Below, piece by piece: positions 6,332-62,926 of a DNA stretch of 64,000 nt. Source of the stretch: an uncultured delta proteobacterium (GTDB lineage Bacteria > Myxococcota_A > Polyangia > Polyangiales > Houyiibacteriaceae); the NCBI GenBank assembly GCA_963699755.1, contig CAVOVB010000002.1:320001-384000 (forward strand). Reading direction: 5' to 3'. The number at the start of each line of letters is the position of its first letter. Position 1 is the stretch's first letter. The notes beneath the pieces are model-generated. The model saw only the letters and a program-made list of their open reading frames with translations, was not told where the DNA came from and ran no database searches. Position numbers and translations under genes: made by a program.

Positions 6332-7759
6332 GTGCTCTTCAATAGCCTCGACTACATTCTGTTCCTGGGGATTGCCGTCGCCGGGTTCTGGCTCTTGGCT
6401 CGCCATGCTCAGGCGCGGATCATCTTCATCTTCGTGCTGTCCTGCCTCTTCTACATGGCATGGCACCCCGCCTATATCGTTCTGATCCTCGGCTCGACCC
6501 TCATCGACTTTGTCGCCGGCCTCCGAATCCACGCCACTGAGAGCACCAAGATCCGGAAGCGCTGGCTGATCGTCAGCCTGGTCTCGAATCTGGGACTGCT
6601 TGGCCTCTTCAAGTATTTCAACTTCGCCTCGCAGGCCACCGCCGACGTCCTGGGGCTCTTTTTCGGCATCGAGATCCCGAACCCGCCGTTCCTCGACATC
6701 CTTCTTCCAGTCGGCATCTCCTTCTATACCTTCCAGACGCTCAGCTACACGATCGACATCTACCGGCGGAAGCTCGCTCCAACCCGCAACTTCTTCGAGT
6801 TCGCTTTCTTCGTCACGTACTTCCCGCAGCTGGTCGCCGGGCCCATCGTTCGCGCGTCCCAGCTGCTGCCACAGCTCCAGCGCAAGATCACGCTGCGGAA
6901 CGATCAGGTCACTCAGGGTCTTTTCCTCATCGCGACCGGCATGGTGAAGAAGATCGCCATCGCCGATTACCTTTCGGTCAATCTCGTTGACCGCGTCTTC
7001 GACCAGCCGGAGCTCTACAGCGGCGCAGAAGTCGTGATCGCTCTCTATGGCTTCACGATGCAGATCTACTGCGACTTCTCGGGCTACACCGACGTCGCAC
7101 GCGGATCGGCGAAGCTCATGGGGCTCGAGCTTCCGGAGAACTTCGACCGACCATATCAGTCCTCGAGTCCTGCGGAGTTCTGGCGCCGCTGGCACATGAC
7201 GCTTTCGACTTGGCTCCGCGACTACTTGTACTTCCCGCTGGGCGGCTCACACACCGGCCCGATCCGGGCGTACTGGAACCTCTGGCTCACCATGTTCCTC
7301 ATCGGTATCTGGCATGGCGCATCCTGGACCTTCGTCGTCTACGCGATTCTGCAATCGATGGCCATGGTGATCCACCGCTTCTTCTACAGGCGATCGGGCC
7401 GCAGTGGCGACACGGTCGACGGGTGGCAACTGCACGCCTTCAAGGTGTTCATGGCGCTGCAATTCGTCGTCTTTTCGAGAATCTTATTCAGAGCGACGAG
7501 CCTTCAGAACGCCGCGGACGTCACGGCGCGCCTCGGCTCCGGAACGTTTTCGGTCGCCCAGATTTCGTTCGGGATCTGGACGATGCTGATCCTGACCTTT
7601 GCCGCACATTACACGCCCAAGCGCTATTTCGAGTCGATCGAGCTCCGCTTCAAGTCGATGCCTGCGCCGGCCCAAGGCGTCGCGCTCGCGATGGTCGGGT
7701 TCGTTTTGAGCGTCGTCGCAACGAGCGAAGTCGTTCCCTACATCTACTTTCAGTTCTAA
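6332..7759 (+). CDS. MBOAT O-acyltransferase (AlgI/PatA/DltB-like)
   Basis: LPVGISFYTFQ, FPQLVAGPI, YCDFSGY, FWRRWHMTLSTWLRDYLY, GIWHGA, YIYFQF. Confidence 0.95.
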   Translation: MLFNSLDYILFLGIAVAGFWLLARHAQARIIFIFVLSCLFYMAWHPAYIVLILGSTLIDFVAGLRIHATESTKIRKRWLIVSLVSNLGLLGLFKYFNFASQATADVLGLFFGIEIPNPPFLDILLPVGISFYTFQTLSYTIDIYRRKLAPTRNFFEFAFFVTYFPQLVAGPIVRASQLLPQLQRKITLRNDQVTQGLFLIATGMVKKIAIADYLSVNLVDRVFDQPELYSGAEVVIALYGFTMQIYCDFSGYTDVARGSAKLMGLELPENFDRPYQSSSPAEFWRRWHMTLSTWLRDYLYFPLGGSHTGPIRAYWNLWLTMFLIGIWHGASWTFVVYAILQSMAMVIHRFFYRRSGRSGDTVDGWQLHAFKVFMALQFVVFSRILFRATSLQNAADVTARLGSGTFSVAQISFGIWTMLILTFAAHYTPKRYFESIELRFKSMPAPAQGVALAMVGFVLSVVATSEVVPYIYFQF

Positions 7760-38684: not shown

Positions 38685-39916
<1,232 letters not shown>

Positions 39917-40159
39917 GCTGCCTCAGGCGCTTGACCTCGGGGAGCTCCATGCCGCCGTACACCCGGCGCCACCGGTACAGCGTCTCGACGCTCACGTCGT
40001 GCTTCTTGGCGACTTCCGCGACCGAGCTCTGGTCGGTCTCCCGGACCGTCTTCACCTTCTGCTCTTCACTAAATCGACTCTTCCTCATGCACTCTCCGGA
40101 CGGTCCCGAAGAGGCAGTCTGTCACGTTTCGCGTGGTCCGAAATTCCGGGGGCAGGTCA

Positions 40160-40428
40160 GGCGGGGCAGCGCCGGCTACGTCGGACGCACGCTGACGCTA
40201 TCGGCATCGGCTCGTCGCCGCACCGAAGTTCCTCGCTGCTCACCCGCTCACAGTTCCGCGCGACCTCACCCGCGTCCCGTGTGCGTGCTGCATCCACTGC
40301 CGGAAAGTCCAATGCGCGCTCTCGTCGTCGAGCGACGATCGATGTCGCCCCTTGTCCGACAGTTTCTCGACTACGCCAGCGAAAACGTGGCCCAAGCTTT
40401 GGGCACGGTCGTCAACAGCTCGTTATGA
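40160..40428 (+). pseudogene. Possible 3' fragment of a LysR-type regulator
   Basis: ...ALVVERRSMSPLVRQFLDYA resembles a LysR C-terminal helix; cut by the IS3 end. Confidence 0.35.
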
Positions 40429-44805: not shown

Positions 44806-46023
44806 TCAGGGGCTTCCGTTGCAGCTGGAAGCTGCCGAGCCCGGAACCGTCTGGGCGGGGAAGTAGTCTCCCGGGTCGGTGAGCATGCCGCCGGCTTCGA
44901 GCTCCGCTTCGTTTCCGGAGATGGTGCTGTTGACGAAGGTCCCGCCGCCGTAAACACCACCGCCAGCGCGCGCCAGATTGTTCGCGACGGTACTGCCGTC
45001 GAGAGCTACTGGACTGTGCCCGTAGATGCCGCCGCCGAACCCGACCGCGCGGTTCTGGGAAAAGGTGCTGTCGGTCACGGTCGCCGTGCCCCCGTGGACG
45101 GCAAGTCCACCGCCATCTTTGTCGGCGGAATTCCCTGAGACCGTCGTTCGGGCCATCGTGAACTCGGCCGAAATTGAAAGGCCGCTGTCGCTGTTCCCTG
45201 AAACCGTGGAGTCGTTCACCGTCACCGTTCCTCCGGCGGAGATGCCGACGCCTACGTTGTCTGCCACGACGCTGTTCGTGACGGTCAACGTGGGGTCGCG
45301 CTGACTGAGTATTCCGGCCCCGTCTCCGGCTTCGTTCTGCACAACGCTACTATCGGTAAGGGTCAATGTGCCGTCGTTGCAAATACCGCCGCCGCGGCCA
45401 TGGAATCCAGGAGCGCCCATCGCGACGCTCTCGGAGACTACGCACCCTTCGTTCGTCAGGCTGCCGGCGTTCAGCACCGCCCCGCCTTCGATTCCGAATC
45501 CTTCGTTCGAGCCTCGGGTCATCGTGAGGCCCCGGAGCTCCGCGGCCACGTCAGCGGGTACCGAGAAGACACGGTGCTCATCGTTGGCGTTTATCGTCAT
45601 GTTTCCCTCGCCATCGAGGGTGACATCGTTGTCGATGACGACTTCGGCCGTCGTCGTGATTGTGGTCGGGCCATCGCAGTCGAAAGTGTACGGGCCGCCG
45701 CCCGCTTCAATCGCACAGAGGATCCCCCGCTCGTTGCACGAGCAGGTGTCGTCCTCGTCGCACGGGGCCGTGAACACACACTCTCCATCCGCCGGATTGC
45801 ACGCGTCGTCGGTGCAGTCGTCTTCGTCGTCACAAGTGACGCCTTCGCAGAGGTCGCCCCCCCCGTATCCACCACCACCGCCGGTGCCCCCGACACCGCC
45901 AGTTCCGCCGGAGCCACCCATGCCGCCATGCGGACCATCATCGGTGCACCCAACCATCGGCATGACGCCCAGCGCCAGCACGAAGCCGAATCCGAATCCG
46001 AATCCGAATAGGCAACGCATCAC
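44806..46023 (-). CDS. Lipoprotein with Gly-rich linker, Cys-rich repeat and beta-helix (PMP-like GGxI) repeats; probably 3'-truncated
   Basis: Lipobox MVGC; CDDEDDCTDDAC; GGAVLN/GGGI/NSTISGNEA repeats ending abruptly. Confidence 0.8.
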   Translation of the reverse strand: MMRCLFGFGFGFGFVLALGVMPMVGCTDDGPHGGMGGSGGTGGVGGTGGGGGYGGGDLCEGVTCDDEDDCTDDACNPADGECVFTAPCDEDDTCSCNERGILCAIEAGGGPYTFDCDGPTTITTTAEVVIDNDVTLDGEGNMTINANDEHRVFSVPADVAAELRGLTMTRGSNEGFGIEGGAVLNAGSLTNEGCVVSESVAMGAPGFHGRGGGICNDGTLTLTDSSVVQNEAGDGAGILSQRDPTLTVTNSVVADNVGVGISAGGTVTVNDSTVSGNSDSGLSISAEFTMARTTVSGNSADKDGGGLAVHGGTATVTDSTFSQNRAVGFGGGIYGHSPVALDGSTVANNLARAGGGVYGGGTFVNSTISGNEAELEAGGMLTDPGDYFPAQTVPGSAASSCNGSP

Positions 46024-47554
46024 AACGTCCCGGTCTCGAGCAATTGCTTTGGTGCAACGGCATCAACCGTGCCTTCTGGGCCGGAGCATACGGAGTGGCA
46101 TTGGTACGGGAGCTCTTCGTACTCGAAGTAGTAGCAATCCCAGTCCTCGAGTTCCGCGACGCAAACGTCCAACGCTTCTGCGTTAGGTTCGCAGGGCATG
46201 CGCTCTCGCAACGCCATGCACTCGGAGACGCATTCGGCGAGGACTAGATCCTCGGGGAAGCACGCCACCGCACGTTCGCAGTACCCGTCGCAGAGCGCTT
46301 GCCAGACTTCGGTGTGATCGGTCCACGGGCCATCGCCATAGCGGCTAGACCACACGGAGGCTCCAAGGCCGCCCGTCAGCGGCGGCCACACTGCGAGGCC
46401 CTTGCCATCCGTGTCCACGCCCATCTTCGGGTGCGCGACGTCACCCCCGGTGTCGAGTCTCACAGATTGGTCCCAAGCGCTACCTGGGGTGTACCGGCTA
46501 GACCAGATGGTGCCCCTGTAGTTGAAGACACCGCCCAAACCGCCAGCGCATTCCCGTTCGGATCGATCGCGACATCGGGCTCGGCATCGTATCGCTCGAT
46601 GTAGTCGGCCTCGACCAGCGCCGCCGTTCTCCATCCCGCAGCCGGGTCGAAACCGTTCGACCAGATAGCGCCTTCTTGGGTCTGCTCGTCCCAGCGCTGC
46701 CACACGACGACCGCTTCGCCGCTGGCGTTCATCGCGATCGCAGGCGCGCGCGATCGTCCAGCGCCGTCGAGGCTTTCGATGCGGGAGGGCTTGGCCTCCC
46801 AACCACTTGCGGGGGTGAAGCGATTGGCCCAGATGCGGGAGGGCCAGTCCTCCTGGTCCCCCTCTTCCTGGCGCCACACCGCAATGGCGCTTCCATTTGC
46901 GTCCATCGCGATGCGATGCCCGTCTGGATCCATCGCTGCCTGCGGAGCGCTCGGGTAGCCGATCTGGTCGTCGTCGATCCGCGTGACGGCGCCCCAGCCG
47001 CCTGTCGGCGTATGGCGCGCTGCCGCGAGGGTGCCCCGATTGTCCGCCACGCGGACCCACACCGCTATCGCATTGCCGCTTGCGTCCATTGCAACGCTCG
47101 GCGCGAACGTGCTCCCTGCGAAATCGGAGTCGAGGGACACGGCTGCCTGCCAGCCGCCTGCTAGCGTGTAGGCGGCGGCCCAAACTTCGCCCTGCCCGCC
47201 TTGAGCATCATGCTGCCATACCGCGACCGCGCTGCCGCTCGGATCCATTGCGACGCGCGGGTATCGCGCGAAGCCGTCGTCTGCCGCGATGCGCTCGGCC
47301 GTTCCCCAGCCACCTTCCGGCGCAAACGAAGCGGCCCACACTTGAGAGTCCGCCCCACCATAGTAGAGCCAGACGGCAACGGCTGCGCCGCTCGCGTCGA
47401 CGGCGAGATCGGGATCGTACCCGTCGGCGATACGCTCGGGGTCTCCACATCCGTGATCGATCGTCTCGCCTTTGGGATCGTCAGCGCACCCAGCGATCCG
47501 CAGAGCACCTACGGCAAGCAGAAACACCGAAAAGCCGATCAAATACCGCATCAC
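46020..47554 (-). pseudogene. Lipoprotein with AxDxxGxAxAVW repeats and Cys-rich tail, frameshifted near 46535
   Basis: Lipobox IAGC. Repeats continue from ORF 46460..47554 into the 46020 frame (GTIWSSRY...VDTDGKGLAVW...CDGYCER). Confidence 0.7.
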
Positions 47555-47591
47555 AACGTCCCCGATTCAGCAAGTCAGTCCTTCAGATCAG

Positions 47592-47607
47592 TGCAGCAGC
47601 CGTGCCA
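47592..47607 (-). promoter_or_regulatory. sigma54 promoter TGGCACG-gctg-CTGCA
   Basis: GG-N10-GC spacing, 38 bp upstream of the lipoprotein start. Confidence 0.6.
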
Positions 47608-47721
47608 GCTCGTTTGCGCGAATTCCCCTGGGTCTTCCGCATACTTCCAGCGCAAGATTTGCGTTTGGGGCGTGGGTGCGCACCGGATGCGCAGACACAG
47701 CTAGCGCCTTACGGCGGCACC

Positions 47722-48082: not shown

Positions 48083-48426
48083 TTTGGTGCGCCGAAACTG
48101 CTTAGCTTCTGGCGTTGCTCAGGCGCAGCTATTGCGTTTGGGGCGGTGGGGACGTAGCGGGTGCGCTCGGCGTCACACCGCGACGGCCGCGACCGCGTGC
48201 GCCACGTTCCACTTCCGGCGCTGTTTGATCGACACCTTCCGACGCCATTCGAACCCCTCTAGGCCAAGCTCCGCAAGTTCGACCGGCGGCGGCGTGGCGC
48301 CTTTCGTCCCCCCGCGTCGGGGTTCCTGGCCCGAGGCACACGTCCGCGACCTTCGGGTCTTTTGCCCGAAGGTCGCAAGACGCGCGCGTCTCGTGTCCCG
48401 CAAATCGCACCGCTTGGCAACCCGTC

Positions 48427-48445
48427 CGACCTTCGGGTTATGAGC
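48427..48445 (-). other. tRNA-fMet-like fragment (anticodon loop to variable loop)
   Basis: Minus strand GCTCATAACCCGAAGGTCG matches the canonical initiator tRNA sequence (recalled, not searched). Confidence 0.65.
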
Positions 48446-48658
48446 TCACAAAGGAAGGCTTTCGCACGCCAGAACAAGCAATCGAGACCACTCAGAAACC
48501 TCAGTGAAGGCCAGGTATTAGGTTCCTTCGCCATGTTCACGGGTCGTCATCTCTCATCACTGCGTTTCACATCGTTAAGGCACCGTCAGGCCACCGGGTT
48601 CGTTTCGACACCGTCAACGGGCTCCGATGCAACACAATCCAGGTCTGAGTCGGGCATG

Positions 48659-49030
48659 CTACTCGAGCAAGCTGCGAAGCATCCACGCTGTCTTATGGTG
48701 TACCTGCATGCGCTGCGTGAGCATATCGCAAGTGCGCTGATCATTCGCTACCTCGGCAATCTTGAAGACGTCGCGCGACGTGCGAGCCGCGGTCTCGTGT
48801 CCTTCGACCAGAAGGCGGATCATGTCCTCGACCGTGAGAACGCCCTCTTCCTCCTTGATCGCCGATAGCTCCGCAAATCGCTTGTACGTACCGGGGGCCG
48901 CCATACTGAGGGCACGCATGCACTCCGCGACGAGATCAACAGCGAGGGCAAGCTCCTTGTACTGGGCCTCGAACATGAGGCGCAACGTCTGGAACATAGG
49001 CCCCGTGACGTCCCAGTGAAACTTGTCACG
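48659..49030 (-). pseudogene. dps: Dps ferritin-like protein, 5'-truncated and degenerate
   Basis: FHWDVTGPMFQTLRLMFE...DLVAECMRAL...HHKTAWML; first helix missing and conserved His/Arg residues altered. Confidence 0.8.
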
Positions 49031-49242
49031 GACCTCGGCGTTCTGAACGGCCATACGAGCGAGTTTTGCCGGTGTTTTCGCGGTTTCGTGATTCGGGAAA
49101 GTGCGCTAAGGAGAGTGGCGCTTAGATGCGCGAGCGCAGGAGTTCGCCGGAAGTCGTAGCGGCGCATCGTCGACTTTCGCCATGCTTGTGGTACCGTTCA
49201 GACTGCCTGGCGTGAGACGTGGCCGGCATGGGAGGGTTGGAG

Positions 49243-49611
49243 ATGAGAATGCTCGTGATACTGGTTCTGAGCGGGACGCTCGGGCTCCTCGGGTGTGGCA
49301 GCAGCGACGACGGAAGCGGCGGCTCAGGGGGGTCGGGTGGAAACGGTGGCACGGCAGGCACCGGCGGGGCCGGCGGCACCGGCGGCACGGACGCCGCGGC
49401 GGCGTTCTGCGACGGCTTCGAGGCCACCTGCAATTACGTCGACTACGAGTTCGAGAACCGTGCCGACTGCCTCGACTTCTACAACACCGAGGATGCTGCG
49501 CGTGTGGCATGCGTCGAACAGCACTTGGGCTTCGCGATGGACGCCGAGACCGGTAGTCCCGACAGGGCTTTGCACTGCGGACACGCGTCGGGACTCGCAC
49601 CGTGTAACTGA
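49243..49611 (+). CDS. Gly-rich/Cys-rich lipoprotein
   Basis: Lipobox LLGC; GGSGG linker; six further Cys, with C...H...HC.HA.G..PC at the end. Confidence 0.75.
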   Translation: MRMLVILVLSGTLGLLGCGSSDDGSGGSGGSGGNGGTAGTGGAGGTGGTDAAAAFCDGFEATCNYVDYEFENRADCLDFYNTEDAARVACVEQHLGFAMDAETGSPDRALHCGHASGLAPCN

Positions 49612-49841
49612 CACGACGGAAGTCTCTCGATCATGAGCTTCACGACCCGGGTTTCCGAGCGAGGCAGCATAATGCCGTAAGCTTCGGGTTCGATCGGAGA
49701 TGTGATGAACCCCACTGTGCCTCCTGCAATCGATAGCATCATCGCGGACATGCGGTTTTCGGCGCTGGCGCCCTCGCCGCTCGGCCCCAGTCGATCGAAG
49801 TAGCGCTTGGTTCGAGCAGCGTCCGGTCGGGAAGACAGTCC

Positions 49842-49872
49842 TTGAAATCCTGACCGACGGTCGTTATACGCT
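49842..49872 (+). promoter_or_regulatory. Candidate promoter TTGAAA-19-TACGCT with GACCG-A-CGGTC palindrome
   Basis: Upstream of the TMEM165 gene; long spacer containing a dyad. Confidence 0.4.
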
Positions 49873-49914
49873 GTCCACCGTTTTCGATACCGGCGCGTCC
49901 CGCGGAGGCTGTTC

Positions 49915-50481
49915 TTGGAAGCTTTGTTTGTCTCCGTGTCGGTGGTCGCGCTGGCGGAGATGGGTGACAAGACCCAACTGCTCTCCTTTGTTCTCGCGGC
50001 AAAGCTCAAACGCAAAGTGCCTATCGCACTTGGAATTCTGTTCGCTACGCTCGCCAATCACGCCCTCGCCGGCTACGTGGGCACATGGCTCGCCGCCCTG
50101 GTGTCCCCCGGAGCTCTGAAATGGATCATCGCCGTATCGTTTTTTGTCTTCGCTTTGTGGGCGCTCAAGCCGGATAAGCTCGATGAAAGCAAAAAGCTCC
50201 GTGGCACCGGTGTGTTCCTGACGACACTCTTGGCCTTCTTCATGGTAGAGATGGGCGATAAGACGCAGCTCGCGACCATCGCGCTGGCGGCGCGCTACGA
50301 GTCCCTGTTCGCTGTCGTGCTAGGAACGACGCTTGGTATGATGATCGCAAATGTCCCTGCTGTGTGGTTGGGCGAAACTCTGGCTCATCGCGTCAACATG
50401 AAGGTGATGCGTGGAGTCGCGGCGGCATTGTTCGTCGTTCTCGGAGTATTGGCGCTATTCGCCGGGAACAGGGTTGACTGA
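49915..50481 (+). CDS. TMEM165/GDT1 (UPF0016) Mn2+/Ca2+ transporter
   Basis: Two EMGDKTQL motifs; GGAGG RBS before TTG. Confidence 0.93.
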   Translation: MEALFVSVSVVALAEMGDKTQLLSFVLAAKLKRKVPIALGILFATLANHALAGYVGTWLAALVSPGALKWIIAVSFFVFALWALKPDKLDESKKLRGTGVFLTTLLAFFMVEMGDKTQLATIALAARYESLFAVVLGTTLGMMIANVPAVWLGETLAHRVNMKVMRGVAAALFVVLGVLALFAGNRVD

Positions 50482-50499
50482 CCCAGTTCGGCCGAAATC

Positions 50500-50740
50500 G
50501 AAGTTGAGCGTCGACTCGCTCGATATGGCCCGAACGAGCTGGAAGCCGCTGATCGTGTCTCGCCTTGGGCCGTTCTGTTGGGACAATTCAAGAATGTCCT
50601 CATCATCATCCTGCTGATCGCAACCGCAGTCTCCGCCTTTGTTGGACACGGCGTCGAGGCCATCGCCATCGCCGTGATCCTGCTGTTCGCCGTGGTGCTG
50701 GGCTTCGTAATGAGTACCGAGCGGAACGTGCGATCGAAGT
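50500..50740 (+). pseudogene. N-terminal fragment of a cation-transporting P-type ATPase
   Basis: Frame not in the ORF track: RRLARYGPNEL...LLGQFKNVLIIILLIATAVSAFVG...VLGFV, then frameshift to EYRAERAIE. Confidence 0.8.
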
Positions 50741-50949
50741 GCCGGTTTTGATTGCGCAACCCCCCCGCACGGAGGTCGCTCGCTCGCCGGGCTCGGCAGC
50801 GCTCGCTGAAATAGGGAACTCTTACCACGCCGCAGCAGCGGTCAAGAGCTCTGCCACGACCAATTTCTTAGTTTCAGTCAACCTTAACACTTGAGACATT
50901 TCGCAAACGATGGGAATACAAACCCACGTGAGCGAGGGGTCATAGGGTA

Positions 50950-51423
50950 GTGGCGCTGGTTTCTCAGCGACCGTGTCTGCGGGGTCGTCACCGTGTCGCG
51001 GCCTTCTTGTATGCCGGCATCGCCGTCGTCAGCTTGGTGCTTGGCGCGATCTACTTGTTTCGCGATTCTTTCATGCCGTATCACGCGGCTGCCCTGGGCA
51101 AGGATTGGGGCGATCTCGGCTCTGCGACCCAGACTCTTCTCAAGGCCCTCATGGAAGTTGCGGCGGGCGGCTGGCTGGCGCTCGGAGCGCTGGTCTTGTT
51201 ACTCGTTGCGTTTCCGATTCGGCGCGGTGAGCGCTGGGCGCGGCTCGCTGCACCAGCCGCTCTCTTGCTCTTCTACGTCCCCACGCTGCTTGCCACCCTG
51301 CGTGTGCTTCATGAGACACCCGCTTCGCCACCTTGGCGCTTCAACGTAGTCGCGTGTCTATGCGCGCTCGTAGGCTTTCTTCTAGACGCACCGTGGCGTT
51401 CTCACCAGACGAACTTCCGATAG
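50950..51423 (+). CDS. Four-TM hypothetical membrane protein
   Basis: YLFRDSFMPYHAAALGKDW motif; hydrophobic helices. Confidence 0.65.
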   Translation: MALVSQRPCLRGRHRVAAFLYAGIAVVSLVLGAIYLFRDSFMPYHAAALGKDWGDLGSATQTLLKALMEVAAGGWLALGALVLLLVAFPIRRGERWARLAAPAALLLFYVPTLLATLRVLHETPASPPWRFNVVACLCALVGFLLDAPWRSHQTNFR

Positions 51424-52940
51424 ACCCTAGGATCGATCGCCGCGGCGCCGAGCATGCCGCCTGCGAGAGCTCCGGCGATCCCGGGGATCATGACGTCCTG
51501 GCCGGTCAGGAATAGGCCGGGGACCGGTGTACGAGCGGCGAGCGCCTCGGACAACATGCGGCGAGGCGTCGTTTCGACGCCGTAGAACCCGCCCTTCTCG
51601 TGGCCGGTGAACGCCGCCGTTGCGAGCGGGGTGCCGAGCTCGCGGTAGACGACGAGCGGCGCCAGCGCCGGGAACTTCTCCTCGAAGAACGCCATCATCT
51701 TCGCCTCGACGCCCTGCTTGAACGCCGCCCATTCGGCGGCGAGCTCCTCGGGCTCTCCGTCCGCGAACCGGGCGACCGACGACCAATCGGCCCAAACCAG
51801 CGCTTCACCGGTGTGTTTGTTCGATGGGCCGGGATCGTGCTCGGGGTCCTTGAGCGACGGGAAAGAGACGAACATCATCGGGATAGGGCTGCTGTCTGCG
51901 TCTACCCAGATGCCATCGTTGGTGTCCCAGCTTTCGTAGAACCAATGGTTCGCGCGTGTGGCTCCGTGTCGAGCGATGTCTCCCTCGAACCCGAGGAACA
52001 TGTCGAAGTGGCAGATCGACGGCTCGAAAGAAGCGATCTCGCGGGCCCACTCCTGCTCGCGAATTCCCTCGGGAAGCAATCGCTTGACCGTTTCGCCCGC
52101 GCCGATCGCCGAGACGATCACGGGCGCCTTGATCTCTTCGCCGCCGCTCGTACGGACGCCGACGGCTCTATCCTCTTCAAACAGAATCGCGGTGACGGGC
52201 GTGGACGCGCGTGCGCTTCCGCCAGCCTCCTCGATCACCGGTACGAGCCCCGCGGCAATGGCGCTTGCGCCGCCCACGGGATAGCCCGCGCCGTCGAGGT
52301 AGTGGCGCATGACGATGGCGTGAACGCCGAAGCTGCCTTCCTTCGGTTTGCCGCCATAGGTGCCCCACTGCGCAGACAACACCGCCGCGAGCTTCGGGTC
52401 GGTGATGATGTCTGCGATGACTTCGCCGGTCGTTCGACCGCACCACCGCTGGATCTTGCGCTTGTTCAACCAGCGCTGCGCGGAGCGGAACGGCTCGGGA
52501 ACCGAACGCCCACCGGCGACCATGTGCGCAATCGTCTCCGCCGACTGCAACGCCTCGAAGTAGGCCTCGATTTCCGCCGCGTTGTCCGGGAACCGATCCT
52601 TGAGCTCCATCTTGTATGCGGCCTCCGGGCGCGCCACCGAGATATCGAAGCCATCCGGAAAGTGCAGGGTGTCGTAGACCGTGCCGACAGAGCGAAACTC
52701 GATCGTCCCGCCACTGAGCCAGTCCAAGATCCGACCTGCGGACTGGTCGGGACCAAACAAGCCGCAGTAGTGAAGGCCCACGTCCCAGCTGAAGCCGTCT
52801 CGAGAGAAGGTGTGGGTCAACCCTCCAATCGACTGCGCCTGCTCGAGAAGCAGGACTTTGTGTTCCAACCGGGACAGGGCTGCCGCAGTCGTCATGCCGC
52901 CCATGCCCGATCCGATGACGATGACATCGAATTCGCTCAT
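51402..52940 (-). CDS. FAD-dependent oxidoreductase (phytoene desaturase/retinol saturase family)
   Basis: VIGSGMGG, GGLTHTF...WDVGLHY, YPVGG, FPSLKDP, TPL, GLFLTGQD. Confidence 0.9.
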   Translation of the reverse strand: MSEFDVIVIGSGMGGMTTAAALSRLEHKVLLLEQAQSIGGLTHTFSRDGFSWDVGLHYCGLFGPDQSAGRILDWLSGGTIEFRSVGTVYDTLHFPDGFDISVARPEAAYKMELKDRFPDNAAEIEAYFEALQSAETIAHMVAGGRSVPEPFRSAQRWLNKRKIQRWCGRTTGEVIADIITDPKLAAVLSAQWGTYGGKPKEGSFGVHAIVMRHYLDGAGYPVGGASAIAAGLVPVIEEAGGSARASTPVTAILFEEDRAVGVRTSGGEEIKAPVIVSAIGAGETVKRLLPEGIREQEWAREIASFEPSICHFDMFLGFEGDIARHGATRANHWFYESWDTNDGIWVDADSSPIPMMFVSFPSLKDPEHDPGPSNKHTGEALVWADWSSVARFADGEPEELAAEWAAFKQGVEAKMMAFFEEKFPALAPLVVYRELGTPLATAAFTGHEKGGFYGVETTPRRMLSEALAARTPVPGLFLTGQDVMIPGIAGALAGGMLGAAAIDPRVYRKFVW

Positions 52941-53081
52941 TGGTGCTCCCCGAACTCCGCTCAGAGCCGGCCCAAGTCAGATAACCGCAAGAGCGGCGCC
53001 GCGTCAAACCGTCTGTGGCCGCGCCGTCTGTGCACGTGGAGCTCTCCTTGACGGGGGCCAGCGAAGATCTACCACAGCTCC

Positions 53082-53564
53082 ATGCCGGCTCCCGTCACCC
53101 CGGACCTCGTCTGGAAAGAGATCGAAAAGCGATCGTTCGCCGTCCTTTCCTACGTGAACCCCAAAGGCCGGGCCCGCTCCTCTGGCATCGTCTACGTCCC
53201 GATCGACCGGGTGCTCTACGTTCGCGTTGCGAAAGATTCGTGGAAGGCGAAACACATCCGGCGGAACCCCCACGTCGCGCTCAACGTGACGATTCCCAAA
53301 CGCGTTCCGTTCATGCCCTGGATCGACATCCCCGACGCGACCATCGCGTTCAGCGGCACCGCACGCGTCGTTCCAATGAGCGAGGTCGGACCGAAGCTCC
53401 TCGAAAGGATCGAGGGACGCCTGATCGAACACCGCGAGACCATGGTCGAGAACTGCATCATCGAGATCCACGCGACCGGTCACTTTGCGACCTACGGCGT
53501 CGGCGTGTCTCTCCTCGACATGCGCGACCCAGAAAAGGCGCGCGGTCGCACGCCCGTCGGCTAG
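53082..53564 (+). CDS. Pyridoxamine 5'-phosphate oxidase-like FMN-binding protein
   Basis: FAVLSYVNPKG...SWKAKHIRRNPHVAL. Confidence 0.8.
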   Translation: MPAPVTPDLVWKEIEKRSFAVLSYVNPKGRARSSGIVYVPIDRVLYVRVAKDSWKAKHIRRNPHVALNVTIPKRVPFMPWIDIPDATIAFSGTARVVPMSEVGPKLLERIEGRLIEHRETMVENCIIEIHATGHFATYGVGVSLLDMRDPEKARGRTPVG

Positions 53565-53684
53565 ATACCTTTGGCCTTACGCGTGGACGTTCCATCTCGG
53601 ATCACGGGCGCAGCTGCGTTTGGTCGAGTCGCTGCGGCCCGGTGCTTCACCTCAGGGCACCCTCGCGGCACCGAACAAGAAGAA

Positions 53685-53737
53685 AGGCACCTAGCCAATT
53701 CGCTAAGTGCCTGACTTCCTTAGTTGCGGGGCCGGAT
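53685..53737 (-). other. tRNA-fMet-like 3' end followed by a hairpin
   Basis: Minus strand ATCCGGCCCCGCAACTA (one C short of the canonical end), then the AGGCACTTAGC/GCTAGGTGCCT stem. Confidence 0.5.
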
Positions 53738-53883
53738 ACGCACAGCGTTGTCCGGTCGATTTCGGAGTGGCGATGGAGGCGGTGGTCGCGGCGTAGTACG
53801 GCGGCCCGAAGACGACGGAGCATTTGTGCTCGCCCCCGCCGAGCACATGTCAACGCTGCGTCAACGCCGGACAACGGAAGGGC

Positions 53884-53989
53884 GGGCATAGCCAATTCAA
53901 ACGCCCTCTCCGCACGCTCCCCAGCGCGACATAAGATCTAGTAGCGCGAAATTCGGCGCTTCTATTGAGCCCGATGGGCCAAGAGAGAC
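53884..53989 (-). repeat. Orphan copy of the ISCR oriIS end
   Basis: 71/74 identity to 58566-58639 plus a further identical 15-mer; ends GGGCGTTTGAATTGGCTATGCCC. Confidence 0.85.
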
Positions 53990-58565: not shown

Positions 58566-60230
58566 GGGCATAACCAATTCAAACGCCCTCTCCGCACGCT
58601 CCCCAACGCGACATAAGATCTAGTACCGCGAAATTCGGCAGTCATCTTGAGCCCGATGGGCTGAGAGACCGGCAAACAAACGCGGTCTGAGTACTATGTT
58701 TGCATCTCGAAGGGCTGGAAACGACGTGAATACGACCGAGCGGATGCAGTTATCCGGTGGCTCGAGCCTCGAAGGCAAGCGCGGTCAACAAGCCCAGGCG
58801 TCGTCGAGCTCAGGGGGTGCCCGTGCAGGTGCGAGCTCGACGGGGCCTGAGGGAAGACCGAGATGACGGAGGATTCGGTGGATGGCGCTCGAAAGCAGGA
58901 TGGCGGCCACAAACCGGAGGCGACCACCGCACGCAGGACACTCGAGCACGTCGATGTCGAGACCGCGCCGCATGAGCTCAGCCCAGGTGCGATTGTGCGA
59001 AGCGACGACTGTTTTCGGGGTGCTTGCGGATGATGCCTTCTCAACTTGCGGACGGCCGAAGTCCACGACCTCCCCCCGCCACTTGGCGTTCGAAGCGAGC
59101 ACGCCGTGATAGACGATGAGGTTGACGTAGGGGCGCGGAATGAGCGCAGCGAGCTTTTCGAGGAGCTCCAGCGGCTGAAGGGCGATGTGACTCGTGCCAT
59201 CGCGCCACGGTGTTTTGAGCCGCACGAGCACGCTTCCGTCGGGTGCGAGGGACAAGCGTTCTTCGGCGACGGGCGGCCGCAAGAGATATCGGCAAAGGCG
59301 CTCGAGCTTGGGTCGGTTCTTGGCGCGGACGGAGGTGTTCGCGTGAAGGTCGAAACCACCGAGGCGGGCTTGTCGCCGACCTTTCGGAAGAGCGGGCTTC
59401 GCCGTTGGCGCGTCTCCGAGGCGGAGCACCGTTGCACCTGGGCGCTGTCCCATGGCCACCCGTTGACGGACGGACGCCGTATAGAGCGTGTGCAATGGCG
59501 GCACCTGCGATTCATCGAGGCGATCGCCGGCGTCGTCGCACAGCAAGCCCCGTCGCACGAGCAGGCGCAGGATTCGGCCTCGAATGACACCGAGCAGGGT
59601 CTCGACCTCCTCGTCGGTGGGCGCTTTGGCGGCTGCGAAGGAAAGCGAGCCGTCCGGCTCTCGCACGAAGACCCCGTCGACCGCCAGCGCGTGGAAGTGC
59701 ACGTTCAGGTTGAGCGCGCCACCGAAGCGCTGGATGACGGTCACCGTACCGGTGCGGCCATCGCGATGACCCGACGCTCTGGCCCTCTTGCGGTAGAAGC
59801 CCTGCACTGCCCGCATGTAGACCGCGAGCACCGCGCGGCAGAGGCGGTGATCCCAGGCAAGCCGATAGCGAAGCTCGAAGGGAAGGCTCAGGACCCATTG
59901 TCGAAACGGGGCCCGCGGGAGCACGTGGTCGACGAGTTGTGCCGTACGCTCGGTCATCCGACGGCCTCCGCAGCTTGGGCAGAAGCCTCGGCCTTCGCAC
60001 GAGAACGCAACCAACCGATCGGTACCGCAGCCCGTACACCGAAAGCGGGCGAAGCCATGCGCGAGCACGCCGCAGCGAACGAACCGCTGAAACTCGCGCT
60101 TCACGAACAAGGGGGCGCCTCGCTGTTCGTCGTGTCGGTCGAGCTCCCAGAGGAAGGTCTGGAGGTGCTCGCGCACCACACGGTGAAGCACCCCGTGCTC
60201 CGGAGCGCGACGCACGTACGATCGAGAAAT
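58566..60230 (-). mobile_element. ISCR/IS91-like rolling-circle element (oriIS at 58566; no terIS recognised)
   Basis: Transposase followed ~220 bp downstream by GGGCGTTTGAATTGGTTATGCCC, resembling ISCR oriIS ends. Confidence 0.8.
58785..60215 (-). CDS. IS91/ISCR-family HUH transposase
   Basis: Zn-binding CG...GFARFRCTGC...FSCEGRGFCPSCG; QWVLSLP; QRFG...NVHFH (HUH); RYLLRPP (single Tyr). Confidence 0.93.
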   Translation of the reverse strand: MRRAPEHGVLHRVVREHLQTFLWELDRHDEQRGAPLFVKREFQRFVRCGVLAHGFARFRCTGCGTDRLVAFSCEGRGFCPSCGGRRMTERTAQLVDHVLPRAPFRQWVLSLPFELRYRLAWDHRLCRAVLAVYMRAVQGFYRKRARASGHRDGRTGTVTVIQRFGGALNLNVHFHALAVDGVFVREPDGSLSFAAAKAPTDEEVETLLGVIRGRILRLLVRRGLLCDDAGDRLDESQVPPLHTLYTASVRQRVAMGQRPGATVLRLGDAPTAKPALPKGRRQARLGGFDLHANTSVRAKNRPKLERLCRYLLRPPVAEERLSLAPDGSVLVRLKTPWRDGTSHIALQPLELLEKLAALIPRPYVNLIVYHGVLASNAKWRGEVVDFGRPQVEKASSASTPKTVVASHNRTWAELMRRGLDIDVLECPACGGRLRFVAAILLSSAIHRILRHLGLPSGPVELAPARAPPELDDAWAC

Positions 60231-60348: not shown

Positions 60349-60394
60349 GGTTTCGTAAACCGTAGGTCGTTGGTTCGAATCCAATCGGTGGCTC
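60349..60394 (+). repeat. attR core (46-bp tRNA-Thr fragment)
   Basis: Identical to 38713-38758; the 5' half of the tRNA is absent. Confidence 0.95.
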
Positions 60395-60550
60395 TAGTGA
60401 GGACGGGGGGTAGCCGTCGATGCCCTTGGGCCCATTCGTTGGAGCGATCCGGTGACCCAAGGCCTCCCTCGTCCGCTCGGTCTGTCCAGCGGCGATAGGC
60501 GAGTGCTAGTGTACTGCTGATCCGCTTGGATGAGGCAGAGGAAGGTTCCA

Positions 60551-62926
60551 ATGAGCGACATTTCAGAACGCGTACTTTCGAGAGAAGAAATCGATGGCAT
60601 CGATGCGTACTGGCGGGCCTGCAATTACCTCGCAGCCGGCATGATCTACCTTCAGGCCAACCCGCTCCTGCGCCAGCCGCTGAGACCCGAACACATCAAG
60701 AATCGGTTGCTTGGCCACTGGGGCGCGAGCCCGGGCCTCTCGTTCATGTACGTGCACCTGAATCGGCTGATCCGCGAGCACGATCAGAACGCCATCTTCC
60801 TGGCGGGACCCGGCCATGGTGCGCCCGGCGTGCTCGCGCCCGTGTATCTAGAGGGCACTTACTCAGAGCGCTACCCGGAGAAGAGCGAGGATGAAGAAGG
60901 CATGCGGCGGTTCTTCAAGCAGTTCTCGTTCCCAGGCGGGATTGGAAGCCACTGCACACCGGAGACGCCGGGCTCCATCCACGAGGGCGGCGAGCTCGGC
61001 TACAGCCTCTCTCATGCATTCGGCGCCGCCTTCGATAATCCGGACCTGCTGGTGGCGGTCGCGATTGGCGACGGTGAATCGGAGACCGGGCCGCTGGCCA
61101 CGGCCTGGCACTCGAACAAGTTCCTGAGCCCCGTCACCGATGGAGCGGTGCTGCCGATCCTCCATCTGAACGGCTACAAGATCAACAACCCAACGATCCT
61201 CTCGCGCGTCTCGCACGAAGAGCTCGAGCAGCTCTTCCGCGGCTACGGCTGGACGCCGCACTTCGTGGAAGGCGACGACCCGGCCGACATGCACCCGAAG
61301 ATGGCCGCGACGCTGGAACGCTGTCTCGCCGAAATCCGCGACATCCAGGGCAAGGCGCGGGCAACCGGGAAGGCAAGCCGCGCGCGCTGGCCGATGATCG
61401 TGCTGCGCACGCCGAAAGGCTGGACCGGCCCGGCCGAGGTTGATGGTCATCGGGTCGAGGGATTCTGGCGCGCACACCAGGTGCCGCTCACCGGCGTGCG
61501 GGAGGACCCGAAACGCCTCTCCCAGCTCGAGGGCTGGCTGAAGAGCTATGGGCCCGATGAGCTCTTCGACCAGACCGGGCGCCTCGTGCCCGAGCTCAAG
61601 GCGCTCGCTCCGGTGGGCGACCGCCGGATGAGCGCCAACCCCATCGCGAATGGCGGACTGCTTCGCAAGGCGCTGCGCATGCCGGATTTCCGCGAGTACG
61701 GACTGAAGGTGGAGCGCCCCGCGCAGACCCGCGCGGAGAACACACGACCGCTGGGGCGGCTGTTGCGTGATGTGATGCGCCGCAACGCGGACCGCTTTCG
61801 TGTGTTCGGGCCGGACGAGAACACCTCGAACAAGCTGGACGCGATTTACGAAGTCAGCAAGAAGCTTTGGCTCGCAGACTACCTGCCGGAGGACGAGGAC
61901 GGCGGTCAGCTTTCGCCGGACGGCCGAGTGCTGGAGATGCTCTCGGAGCATACGCTCGAGGGCTGGCTGGAGGGCTATGTGCTCACCGGCCGCCACGGCT
62001 TTTTCTCGACCTACGAGGCCTTCGTCCACGTCATCGACTCGATGTACAACCAGCACGCGAAATGGCTGGCCATCTGCAACGAGATCCCCTGGCGGGCGCC
62101 GATCTCGTCGCTGAATCTACTGATCACCTCGACGGTGTGGCGCCAGGATCACAACGGGTTCACCCATCAGGACCCGGGCTTCTTGGACGTGGTCGTGAAC
62201 AAGAACCCCGAGGTGACTCGTATCTACCTGCCGCCGGACGTGAATACGCTGTTGTCGGTGGCAGACCACTGCCTCCGAAGCATGAACAACATCAACGTCA
62301 TCGTCTCCGACAAACAGCAGCATCAGCAATACATGGATATGGACGAGGCGGTGAATCACTGCACCAAAGGCATCGGCACCTGGGACTGGGCCAGCAACGA
62401 CCAGGGTTCGGAGCCCGATGTGGTCATGGTCGGTTGCGGCGATATCCCGACACAGGAGGCGCTGGCGGCCACGGCGATCCTCCGCGAACATTTCCCGGCG
62501 CTGAAGATCCGCTTCATCAATGTGGTCGATCTGTTCAAGATGCAGCCCGAGGGAGAGCACCCGCACGGCCTTTCCGATCGCGACTTCGACGGCCTGTTTA
62601 CCAAGGATAAGCCCGTGATCTTCAACTTCCACGGTTATCCATGGCTGATCCACCGCCTTGCCTACAGGCGCACGAATCACGCGAATCTGCACGTGCGCGG
62701 CTATAAGGAAAAGGGCAACATCAACACGCCGCTGGAGCTCGCCATGGACAACGAGATCGACCGCTTCAGCCTCGCGATCGACGTCATCAACCGCCTGCCA
62801 GAGCTGCAGGTGGCCGGCGCGCACGTGAAAGACTCGCTGCGCGACCGGCAGATCGAGTGTCGCGCGTACGCTCACCGGCACGGCGTCGACCTACCGGAGG
62901 TCAGCGACTGGTGCTGGCCGTACTGA
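60551..62926 (+). CDS. xfp: Xylulose-5-phosphate/fructose-6-phosphate phosphoketolase
   Basis: [50 protein letters not shown]. Confidence 0.97.

Follow-up and report, generated by a model that had tools for sequence, protein, structure and literature searches.

Several described systems stack integrative elements or their remnants at a single target. The available part of one account covers tandem accretion and integrase-less remnants stacked at one site, with the cis-mobilizable element (CIME) keeping both attL and attR (PMC5704250). The accessible text on the ssrA islands of Dehalococcoides describes a serine recombinase, DsiB, whose gene overlaps the attachment (att) site with its 3′ end, and 15 islands that lack integration modules (PMC3146451). 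In the Prochlorococcus tycheposon islands, as presented in the portion of the preprint consulted, newer elements push older ones inward, partial tRNAs and integrase fragments lie scattered, recombinases are mostly of the tyrosine and sometimes of the serine type, and elements jump to short tRNA segments in other islands (bioRxiv 10.1101/2020.12.28.424599). The excerpted Islander work recognizes crossover sites centred on the anticodon and at the T/acceptor junction, counts a small deletion near the 3′ end of a tRNA fragment as known damage, and in its 2014 text held that serine recombinases were not known to target tRNA genes (PMC4383910). In the integration-dependent switches of mycobacteriophages, according to the sections available, recombination removes the C-terminal tail of a repressor whose gene spans attP, and a tag was tested (PMC3694055). 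Here, we analyse a 64,000-nt stretch from an uncultured delta proteobacterium (contig CAVOVB010000002.1 of assembly GCA_963699755.1, forward-strand positions 320,001 to 384,000; the window), in which a block at 48427..53737 on the minus strand is bracketed by two tRNA-fMet fragments and lies within an island spanning tRNA-Thr (38685) to a 46-bp repeat (60349-60394). An initial annotation, made from the sequence alone, had taken the fragments for the permuted halves of one attP.

Our analysis indicates that this block is probably what remains of two cassettes from a tandem array at tRNA-fMet. Two recombinases would have built that array, and a decayed piece of it, flanks included, would later have come to lie inverted in the Thr island. 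Its two tRNA fragments are separate scars of two different recombinases, and their 3′-piece-first order is the plain order of successive junctions in a tandem array. Throughout, G-numbers denote genomes of the genus (G000 is the source genome), C-numbers contigs, L-numbers retrieved loci, and X1, X2, X3 and X5 sequencing runs. The genus set comprises 55 genomes, the records of the relatives being titled Myxococcales or Polyangiales.

Both fragments lie on the minus strand where the initial annotation had placed them, and both derive from tRNA-fMet. At 48427..48445, the anticodon loop and right half-site of a tyrosine-integrase attR core, with the 3′ half of the tRNA missing, form an exact 19-nt copy of the source genome's tRNA-fMet. 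This exceeds chance, as none of 100 dinucleotide-preserving shuffles matched at two or fewer mismatches, and the longest exact tRNA-fMet match in 300 shuffles of the block was 16 nt. At 53721..53737 lies the tRNA-fMet 3′-end core of a serine-recombinase attR, its run of five Cs short by one C at the predicted crossover. The longest exact match of this piece (10 nt) is at chance level taken alone; with its flanks, it matches array copies on C3 at E-values down to 6e-47. At the missing C, run X1 shows no added base and runs X2, X3 and X5 show one.

The T-loop, previously described as degenerate, is instead absent: the 9 nt between the two tRNA pieces are replaced on both sides by unrelated conserved modules, and the bases beside the anticodon fragment that had been taken for it are the start of one such module (W, below). 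The two ends of the block share only 5 nt near their cores. Nor do the fragments make up a split or permuted tRNA gene, as the 5′ acceptor strand, D arm and T loop are all absent, and neither ARAGORN nor Rfam called a tRNA at either of them. ARAGORN found no intact tRNA-fMet near the block, which is not bounded by a tRNA and a direct-repeat fragment as islands are.

Each fragment is flanked by conserved modules. The 53737 fragment reads X-core-Y1 and is an attR left by a serine element, which appears to have arrived at the tRNA once a tyrosine element was in place. Y1 (53593..53720, minus strand), the left end of a tyrosine element, contains a terminator-like hairpin at 53712-53685, annotated before and present, whose stability does not exceed that of shuffles (z -1.4), as well as arm-type repeats at 53672-53641. 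On the plus strand, 53593..53691 encodes the last 33 codons of the tRNA-fMet tyrosine integrase (79% identity to C3:17973-19058). The earlier statement that no recombinase lies inside the block needs correction on this one remnant; an integrase on board, as islands carry, is lacking. X (53738..53796, minus strand), a 60-bp arm with sharp boundaries, is the right end of a large-serine-recombinase element, and its plus strand encodes the attP-side C-terminal tail of the recombinase. The direct X-core-Y junction recurs in 12 of 14 distinct X-to-Y hits, the window included.

The 48445 fragment reads Z-core-W and represents a tyrosine attR whose 3′ half has been replaced by a conserved array module. 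Z (48446..48605, minus strand; 77% identical to C3 copies) is the right end of a tyrosine element, with arm-type repeats of 11-bp period at 48595-48574, and precedes a long core starting at the anticodon loop. A complete 4.3-kb element at tRNA-fMet (L150) has the order tRNA-Y1-integrase-cargo-Z-core, and Y1 and Z of the window align to its two ends as matched arms with 11-bp-period repeats. This bears out the earlier proposal of descent from tRNA-fMet-targeting elements with loss of the integrase. A third fMet att arm, Z3 (50846..50911, minus strand), breaks off where the anticodon loop begins; its neighbouring cargo of PNPOx protein, oxidoreductase and membrane protein occurs in relatives with Z3 at its end and the tRNA core next (L030, L031, L056). 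Because this third arm lies within the block, the block is a composite of at least two cassettes. Beyond X, outside the reported block, lies a further arm-type triple repeat of fMet array type (53844..53875, minus strand; repeat type as in the Y2 and Z3 arms).

W (48320..48426, minus strand; 86% to C3:7065-7188) is a module of fMet arrays that usually has a different neighbour. Fourteen of its 17 distinct copies follow a mini-module of about 200 bp, composed of a terminator, arm repeats, a spacer and a core-like site with changed overlap; in the remaining three, the window's copy and one in each of two further genomes where the arms are different, W stands after an element arm and a tRNA-type overlap. 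A small candidate open reading frame (ORF) in the mini-module shows many indels in alignment. Within W, a symmetric core-like site (48346..48376, minus strand) presents the tRNA right half-site twice, in inverted orientation, on either side of a 7-nt spacer whose sequence is not that of the anticodon loop; it folds as the perfect 12-bp hairpin noted initially, with a 7-nt loop. A terminator function for this hairpin was rejected, as no T-run follows on either strand. The symmetric site, its spacer 7 nt in W-type copies, occurs in 11 of the 55 genus genomes, compared with 0 for a reversed-pattern control. X and W occur together at 9 distinct places, never joined and 206-210 bp apart in 7 of them. 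In G006 (L074), the precursor arrangement Z3-core-3′half-Y2-V-core′-W is present; because both sites stand in a row there, loss of 200 bp between two direct repeats explains a Z-core-W junction. As a separate observation, tRNA-Arg(ccg) islands share the mini-module design (L182:444-800 and 7081-7420 in G050:C18; L189:9632-9900 in G046:C1), with a 3′ half, terminator, arm repeats and a symmetric core-like site with changed spacer, some also having an fMet-type core-like site.

The source tRNA-fMet itself lies across two contigs, running from the start of C11 into the start of C3. Over its first 50 kb (L001-L003), C3 is an array of short cargo blocks, parted by incomplete tRNA copies that bear conserved arms; X, Y, Z and W modules recur in it. 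C3:1-50000 contains about 12 att junctions, and its cassettes of 1-11 kb include hydrolases, transporters and a P450. A search for integrases next to tRNA-fMet, as the initial annotation had advised, finds just one intact recombinase of each kind in this array: a large serine recombinase (C3:3-1673, 557 amino acids; PF00239, PF07508, PF13408) and a tyrosine integrase (C3:17973-19058, 362 amino acids). The serine enzyme has matches at E 1e-40 or better in 17 of the 55 genus genomes, and the tyrosine enzyme has matches in 31, many of them 55-70% relatives whose target site may differ; named relatives of the latter are recorded as Myxococcales, Polyangiales or Deltaproteobacteria, plus one Coxiellaceae bin. 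In this genus, two enzymes share tRNA-fMet, the tyrosine integrase crossing over at the anticodon loop and the large serine recombinase at the 3′ end. In 19 distinct intact tRNA-fMet loci, fetched by queries with such modules and hence no measure of prevalence, the next module is Y1 in 10, the serine left arm Y3 in 8 and another in 1. A 140-150-bp unit resembling a miniature inverted-repeat transposable element, with inverted tRNA-fMet 3′ ends at both tips (C3:25661-25830, L019:7411-7558), also recurs in arrays and is the first module behind the tRNA in G015.

The reading frame of the serine recombinase, in C3:3-1673 and in relatives, runs on through the tRNA antisense, its 3′ end overlapping the att site as in DsiB. 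Read on the recombinase strand, the X tail comprises 24 residues. Among 37 distinct X copies, which are related and hence not independent, 36 stop at codon 25 (26 with TAG, 7 with TAA, 3 with TGA) and none earlier. In 30 copies the last two residues are Ala-Ala, and most departures from the consensus are synonymous (103 vs 76), indicating that the tail is under coding constraint. Integration would swap the attP-side tail of the recombinase for one encoded by the antisense of the tRNA; ending mostly in Ala-Ala, the original tail is a candidate degradation tag. Furthermore, in the X-core-Y3 junction L033 the two arms present a 10-bp motif in inverted orientation, its copies 20 nt apart and placed symmetrically about the C-run of the tRNA 3′ end; inverted motifs around a central crossover are the layout expected of a serine attP.

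These observations suggest a sequence of events. Homology shows a first step in which a tyrosine element with arms Y1 and Z entered tRNA-fMet at the anticodon loop. A large-serine-recombinase element, as the anatomy of the 53737 junction shows, entered the tRNA 3′ end, presumably second, pushing the older element off the tRNA 5′ half and leaving the X-core-Y1 junction. The attR core may then have recombined with a similar core in a mini-module that lay some 200 bp downstream, removing the tRNA 3′ half and yielding Z-core-W, a product that fits integrase action or slippage equally. Internal deletions took out the integrase and fused the cassettes. Finally, at least 7.8 kb (46.0-53.88 kb) would have arrived inverted in the Thr island; the likeliest routes are recombination between islands and an event of IS91/ISCR type. 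Because its left end, read on the minus strand, has only a serine core and its right end only a tyrosine core, the block is not excisable by either enzyme.

Modules displaced in this manner are not confined to the window. Ten few-contig relatives were probed and tRNA-fMet could be located in eight; fMet modules lie away from it in five of these (G015, G023, G050, G062, G063), and none was shown in the other three (G008, G014, G061). Among the strays inspected, the G062 modules follow tRNA-Leu(tag) and those of G050, G063 and G046 follow tRNA-Arg(ccg), with no tRNA in the stretches fetched around the G015 and G023 strays. The source genome carries two further strays, on C1 and C6. The array-derived DNA also extends beyond the reported block, since the left-flank cargo at 46001..47692 (minus strand) is 89-92% identical to G058:C273 (L129), where it directly follows an fMet att module.

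Several points weigh against relocation of a tandem-array piece. The whole 7.8-kb arrangement occurs in no relative, so its move as one piece is deduced from mosaic matches; the left border of the moved piece was not found, and nothing in the arrays matches 48320-47693, which separates W from the cargo shared with G058. Among the run matches listed, no contig bridges the two main junctions. Parts of the block may have joined separately, because its middle cassette (P-type ATPase fragment, GDT1 and lipoprotein) adjoins tRNA-Arg(ccg) in G015. Recombination itself was not directly observed.

The array piece could instead have been built in place, which we consider unlikely. A mini-module docking site would already have stood in the Thr island, and its first core-like site would have taken up an element through the fMet tyrosine integrase, so that Z-core-W arose on the right and a new tRNA 3′ half on the left; a serine element would then have entered that half and lost its left part. 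Such a history would account for three independent arm-core-W junctions that switch at the 7-bp overlap or right half-site, for the symmetric site that directly precedes a tRNA 3′ half and a new left arm in G042 (L123/L133), and for the fMet-type core-like sites in tRNA-Arg(ccg) island modules of G050 and G046. The usual X-to-W spacing noted above would likewise look as if the block had replaced a mini-module. However, simple deletion between 13-16-bp direct repeats yields the same junction, and the window contains no serine left arm, recombinase remnant or V arm. In the spacers, moreover, 2 to 4 of the 7 positions do not agree with the anticodon loop, a mismatch that blocks most tyrosine recombinases, and the Thr islands of six relatives lack fMet modules in the stretches fetched.

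We regard as very improbable the model of the initial annotation, in which one fMet element opened its attP around the T-loop, used a secondary site within the Thr island and could be moved in trans. Y1 and Z do pair up as the two ends of a single element family, the genome keeps an intact integrase at another locus, and arrays contain a joined Z-core-3′half-Y with a gap of 9-10 nt in 6 of 7 cases. Yet the crossovers lie at the anticodon loop and the 3′ end, not at the T-loop, and the 9 nt of the T-arm are missing at both ends. The fragments, made by two different recombinases, stem from unrelated events rather than from one attP. Insertion at a secondary site would call for outer flanks of unrelated sequence, a common core and an empty site. 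Array modules instead continue outside both fragments (X and an arm repeat to 53875, W down to 48320), the ends share no core beyond 5 nt, and no empty site was found in the loci and runs covered; for these reasons the secondary-site model fails. The X-W joint that an empty site at 48426/53738 would show is absent from the retrieved loci, from the source genome and from the joints listed for four runs, nor is a joint of a circularized block among those listed; these runs comprise contigs only, which show presence and not absence, and low-share runs were left out of the evidence. A joint of 53564 to 48342 in run X5 was rejected as a circle (15 differences in 101 nt, with 92 other letters between) and matches the W-then-PNPOx order of G011 and G062. 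The run with most of the block is a sediment metagenome. Least probable, and likewise very unlikely, is an assembly chimera that put DNA of the fMet array next to the Thr island. In its favour, the genome has a listed contamination of 9%, the arms are repeats, and no contig among those listed bridges the main junctions. But the block is internal to a 903-kb contig, contigs of run X1 show no differences inside it and on both sides, and comparable strays occur in separately assembled relatives. The window's arms are also not collapsed repeats, because they are only 77-87% identical to the C3 copies.

The cargo agrees with the earlier calls of a dps remnant, a TMEM165 protein and a P-type ATPase remnant. 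The dps remnant (48659..49054, minus strand; PF00210, tblastn) retains residues 35-155 of 156, the first 34 being absent. A small Gly-rich lipoprotein-like ORF (49219..49611, plus strand) has no Pfam or NCBIfam match and a homologue in the G010 fMet array. It is followed by an apparently intact GDT1/TMEM165 cation-proton antiporter (49915..50481, plus strand; PF01169 twice) and the N-terminal fragment of a P-type ATPase (50491..50777, plus strand), 93% identical to residues 34-107 of an 899-amino-acid gene product on C7 and keeping about 95 of 899 codons. The remainder consists of a small membrane-protein-like ORF with no family match (50950..51423, plus strand), an intact phytoene-desaturase-like FAD oxidoreductase (51402..52940, minus strand) that scores below curated cut-offs, and a PNPOx/PPOX-class protein (53082..53564, plus strand; PF01243). 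The main cargo, 53564-50904, is found among fMet modules in G002, G006, G010, G011, G019, G050, G051 and G062. In the left flank, an ORF at 46460-47554 has five repeats of about 55 residues, spaced 159-183 bp apart, with no confident Pfam match; its product is probably a beta-propeller.

The host island begins at tRNA-Thr(cgt) (38685..38759, plus strand; ARAGORN, Rfam), and over 36-62 kb of the window Rfam matched no structured RNA other than this tRNA. The adjoining tyrosine integrase (38696..39916, minus strand; PF00589) has an open reading frame, differs in family from the fMet integrase and has relatives that adjoin tRNA-Thr; the attR at the far end (60349..60394, plus strand) is a 46-bp perfect repeat of the tRNA-Thr 3′ part. 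With these two features, the block could travel along with the Thr island. An insertion sequence (IS) fragment at 39870-40160, 92-97% identical to copies on C2 and C6, lies directly upstream of the Thr integrase and may influence its start or promoter. Beyond the attR, a phosphoketolase gene (60530-62926) has no DNA match in 5 relatives probed, so the variable region probably reaches past the Thr-island repeat.

The right border of the array-derived stretch is marked by an IS91/ISCR-like end repeat (53884..53986, plus strand; 90% to 58566-58668), presumably an "oriIS". An IS91/ISCR-like transposase of the Y2 type (58785..60215, minus strand; PF04986, PF14319, with NF052416 below cut-off) lacks the upstream sequence of other copies. 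The same end repeat abuts the G062 stray. We did not adopt movement of the block by the IS end at 53884, as its tip faces the block and a rolling-circle model would carry the DNA of the other side; a contribution of this end is nevertheless possible. The repeat, about 100 bp long, has 32 hits in the genome. On C7 (11011-57245), one Y2 transposase is followed by nine copies in the same orientation, spread over 46 kb and separated by differing cargo, a series that looks like a cassette array built on transposon ends. ISCR ends have been described (PMC13393415, available part).

The block itself, a dead remnant, is of little weight; its setting is more useful, and the C3 array is the better object for follow-up. 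One genome offers both enzymes and their exact sites, and the locus shows that permuted tRNA fragments arise without a T-loop attP when a second recombinase enters the same tRNA and strands the first element. It also documents that, in uncultured myxobacteria of sediment, pieces of arrays have moved repeatedly from island to island across different tRNAs. More speculatively, the conserved core-like sites might be working docking sites, although we rather doubt it. On a similarly tentative footing, the genus might run an integron-like exchange of cassettes on its tRNA islands, with mini-modules as docking sites and the block as one exported product. The 200-300-bp mini-modules with a fixed 7-bp mismatched spacer would then conceivably serve insertion, excision and export in trans, including to islands at other tRNAs. 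As to integrons proper, the integrase falls outside the IntI family (TIGR02249 32 bits against a cut-off of 265), and the junctions are tRNA-derived. If the core-like sites do work in docking, cassettes would be shuffled here with neither IntI nor attC, a system of which we found no description in the literature searched, mostly open-access papers without their supplements.

Comparison with the described systems, as far as the portions of those accounts extend, places the locus beside tandem accretion and CIMEs, with which it shares decayed, integrase-less elements stacked by successive site-specific integration. The block has lost integration and transfer genes and functions like a CIME-type remnant, but its left end lacks the anticodon core and its right end the 3′ half. 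Unlike a CIME, it has no complete attL or attR, lies inverted in another island away from its target tRNA, and has ends from two recombinase families. The Dehalococcoides ssrA islands resemble the array in their 3′-overlapping serine recombinase and the many direct repeats downstream of one tRNA-like gene, whereas here the target is tRNA-fMet, a tyrosine integrase uses it too, the loci seen have no six-gene module, and the attP-side tail shows codon-level conservation. With the Prochlorococcus tycheposon islands it shares older elements pushed into the island, scattered partial tRNAs and both recombinase types; by contrast, no replication or packaging genes were seen in the block, and the conserved mini-modules with mismatched core-like sites are a feature found here. 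The crossover subsites and the small 3′ deletion are those of Islander-type islands, yet the block fails the integrase, configuration and orientation filters, and a serine recombinase targets a tRNA. As in the mycobacteriophage switches, site-specific recombination would remove the C-terminal tail of an attP-spanning gene; here the enzyme that recombines, the serine recombinase, is itself the product of that gene, and its Ala-Ala tail is no more than a candidate tag. The known kind is tandem accretion, and what is unusual is the interleaving of two recombinase families at one tRNA together with conserved extra core-like sites.

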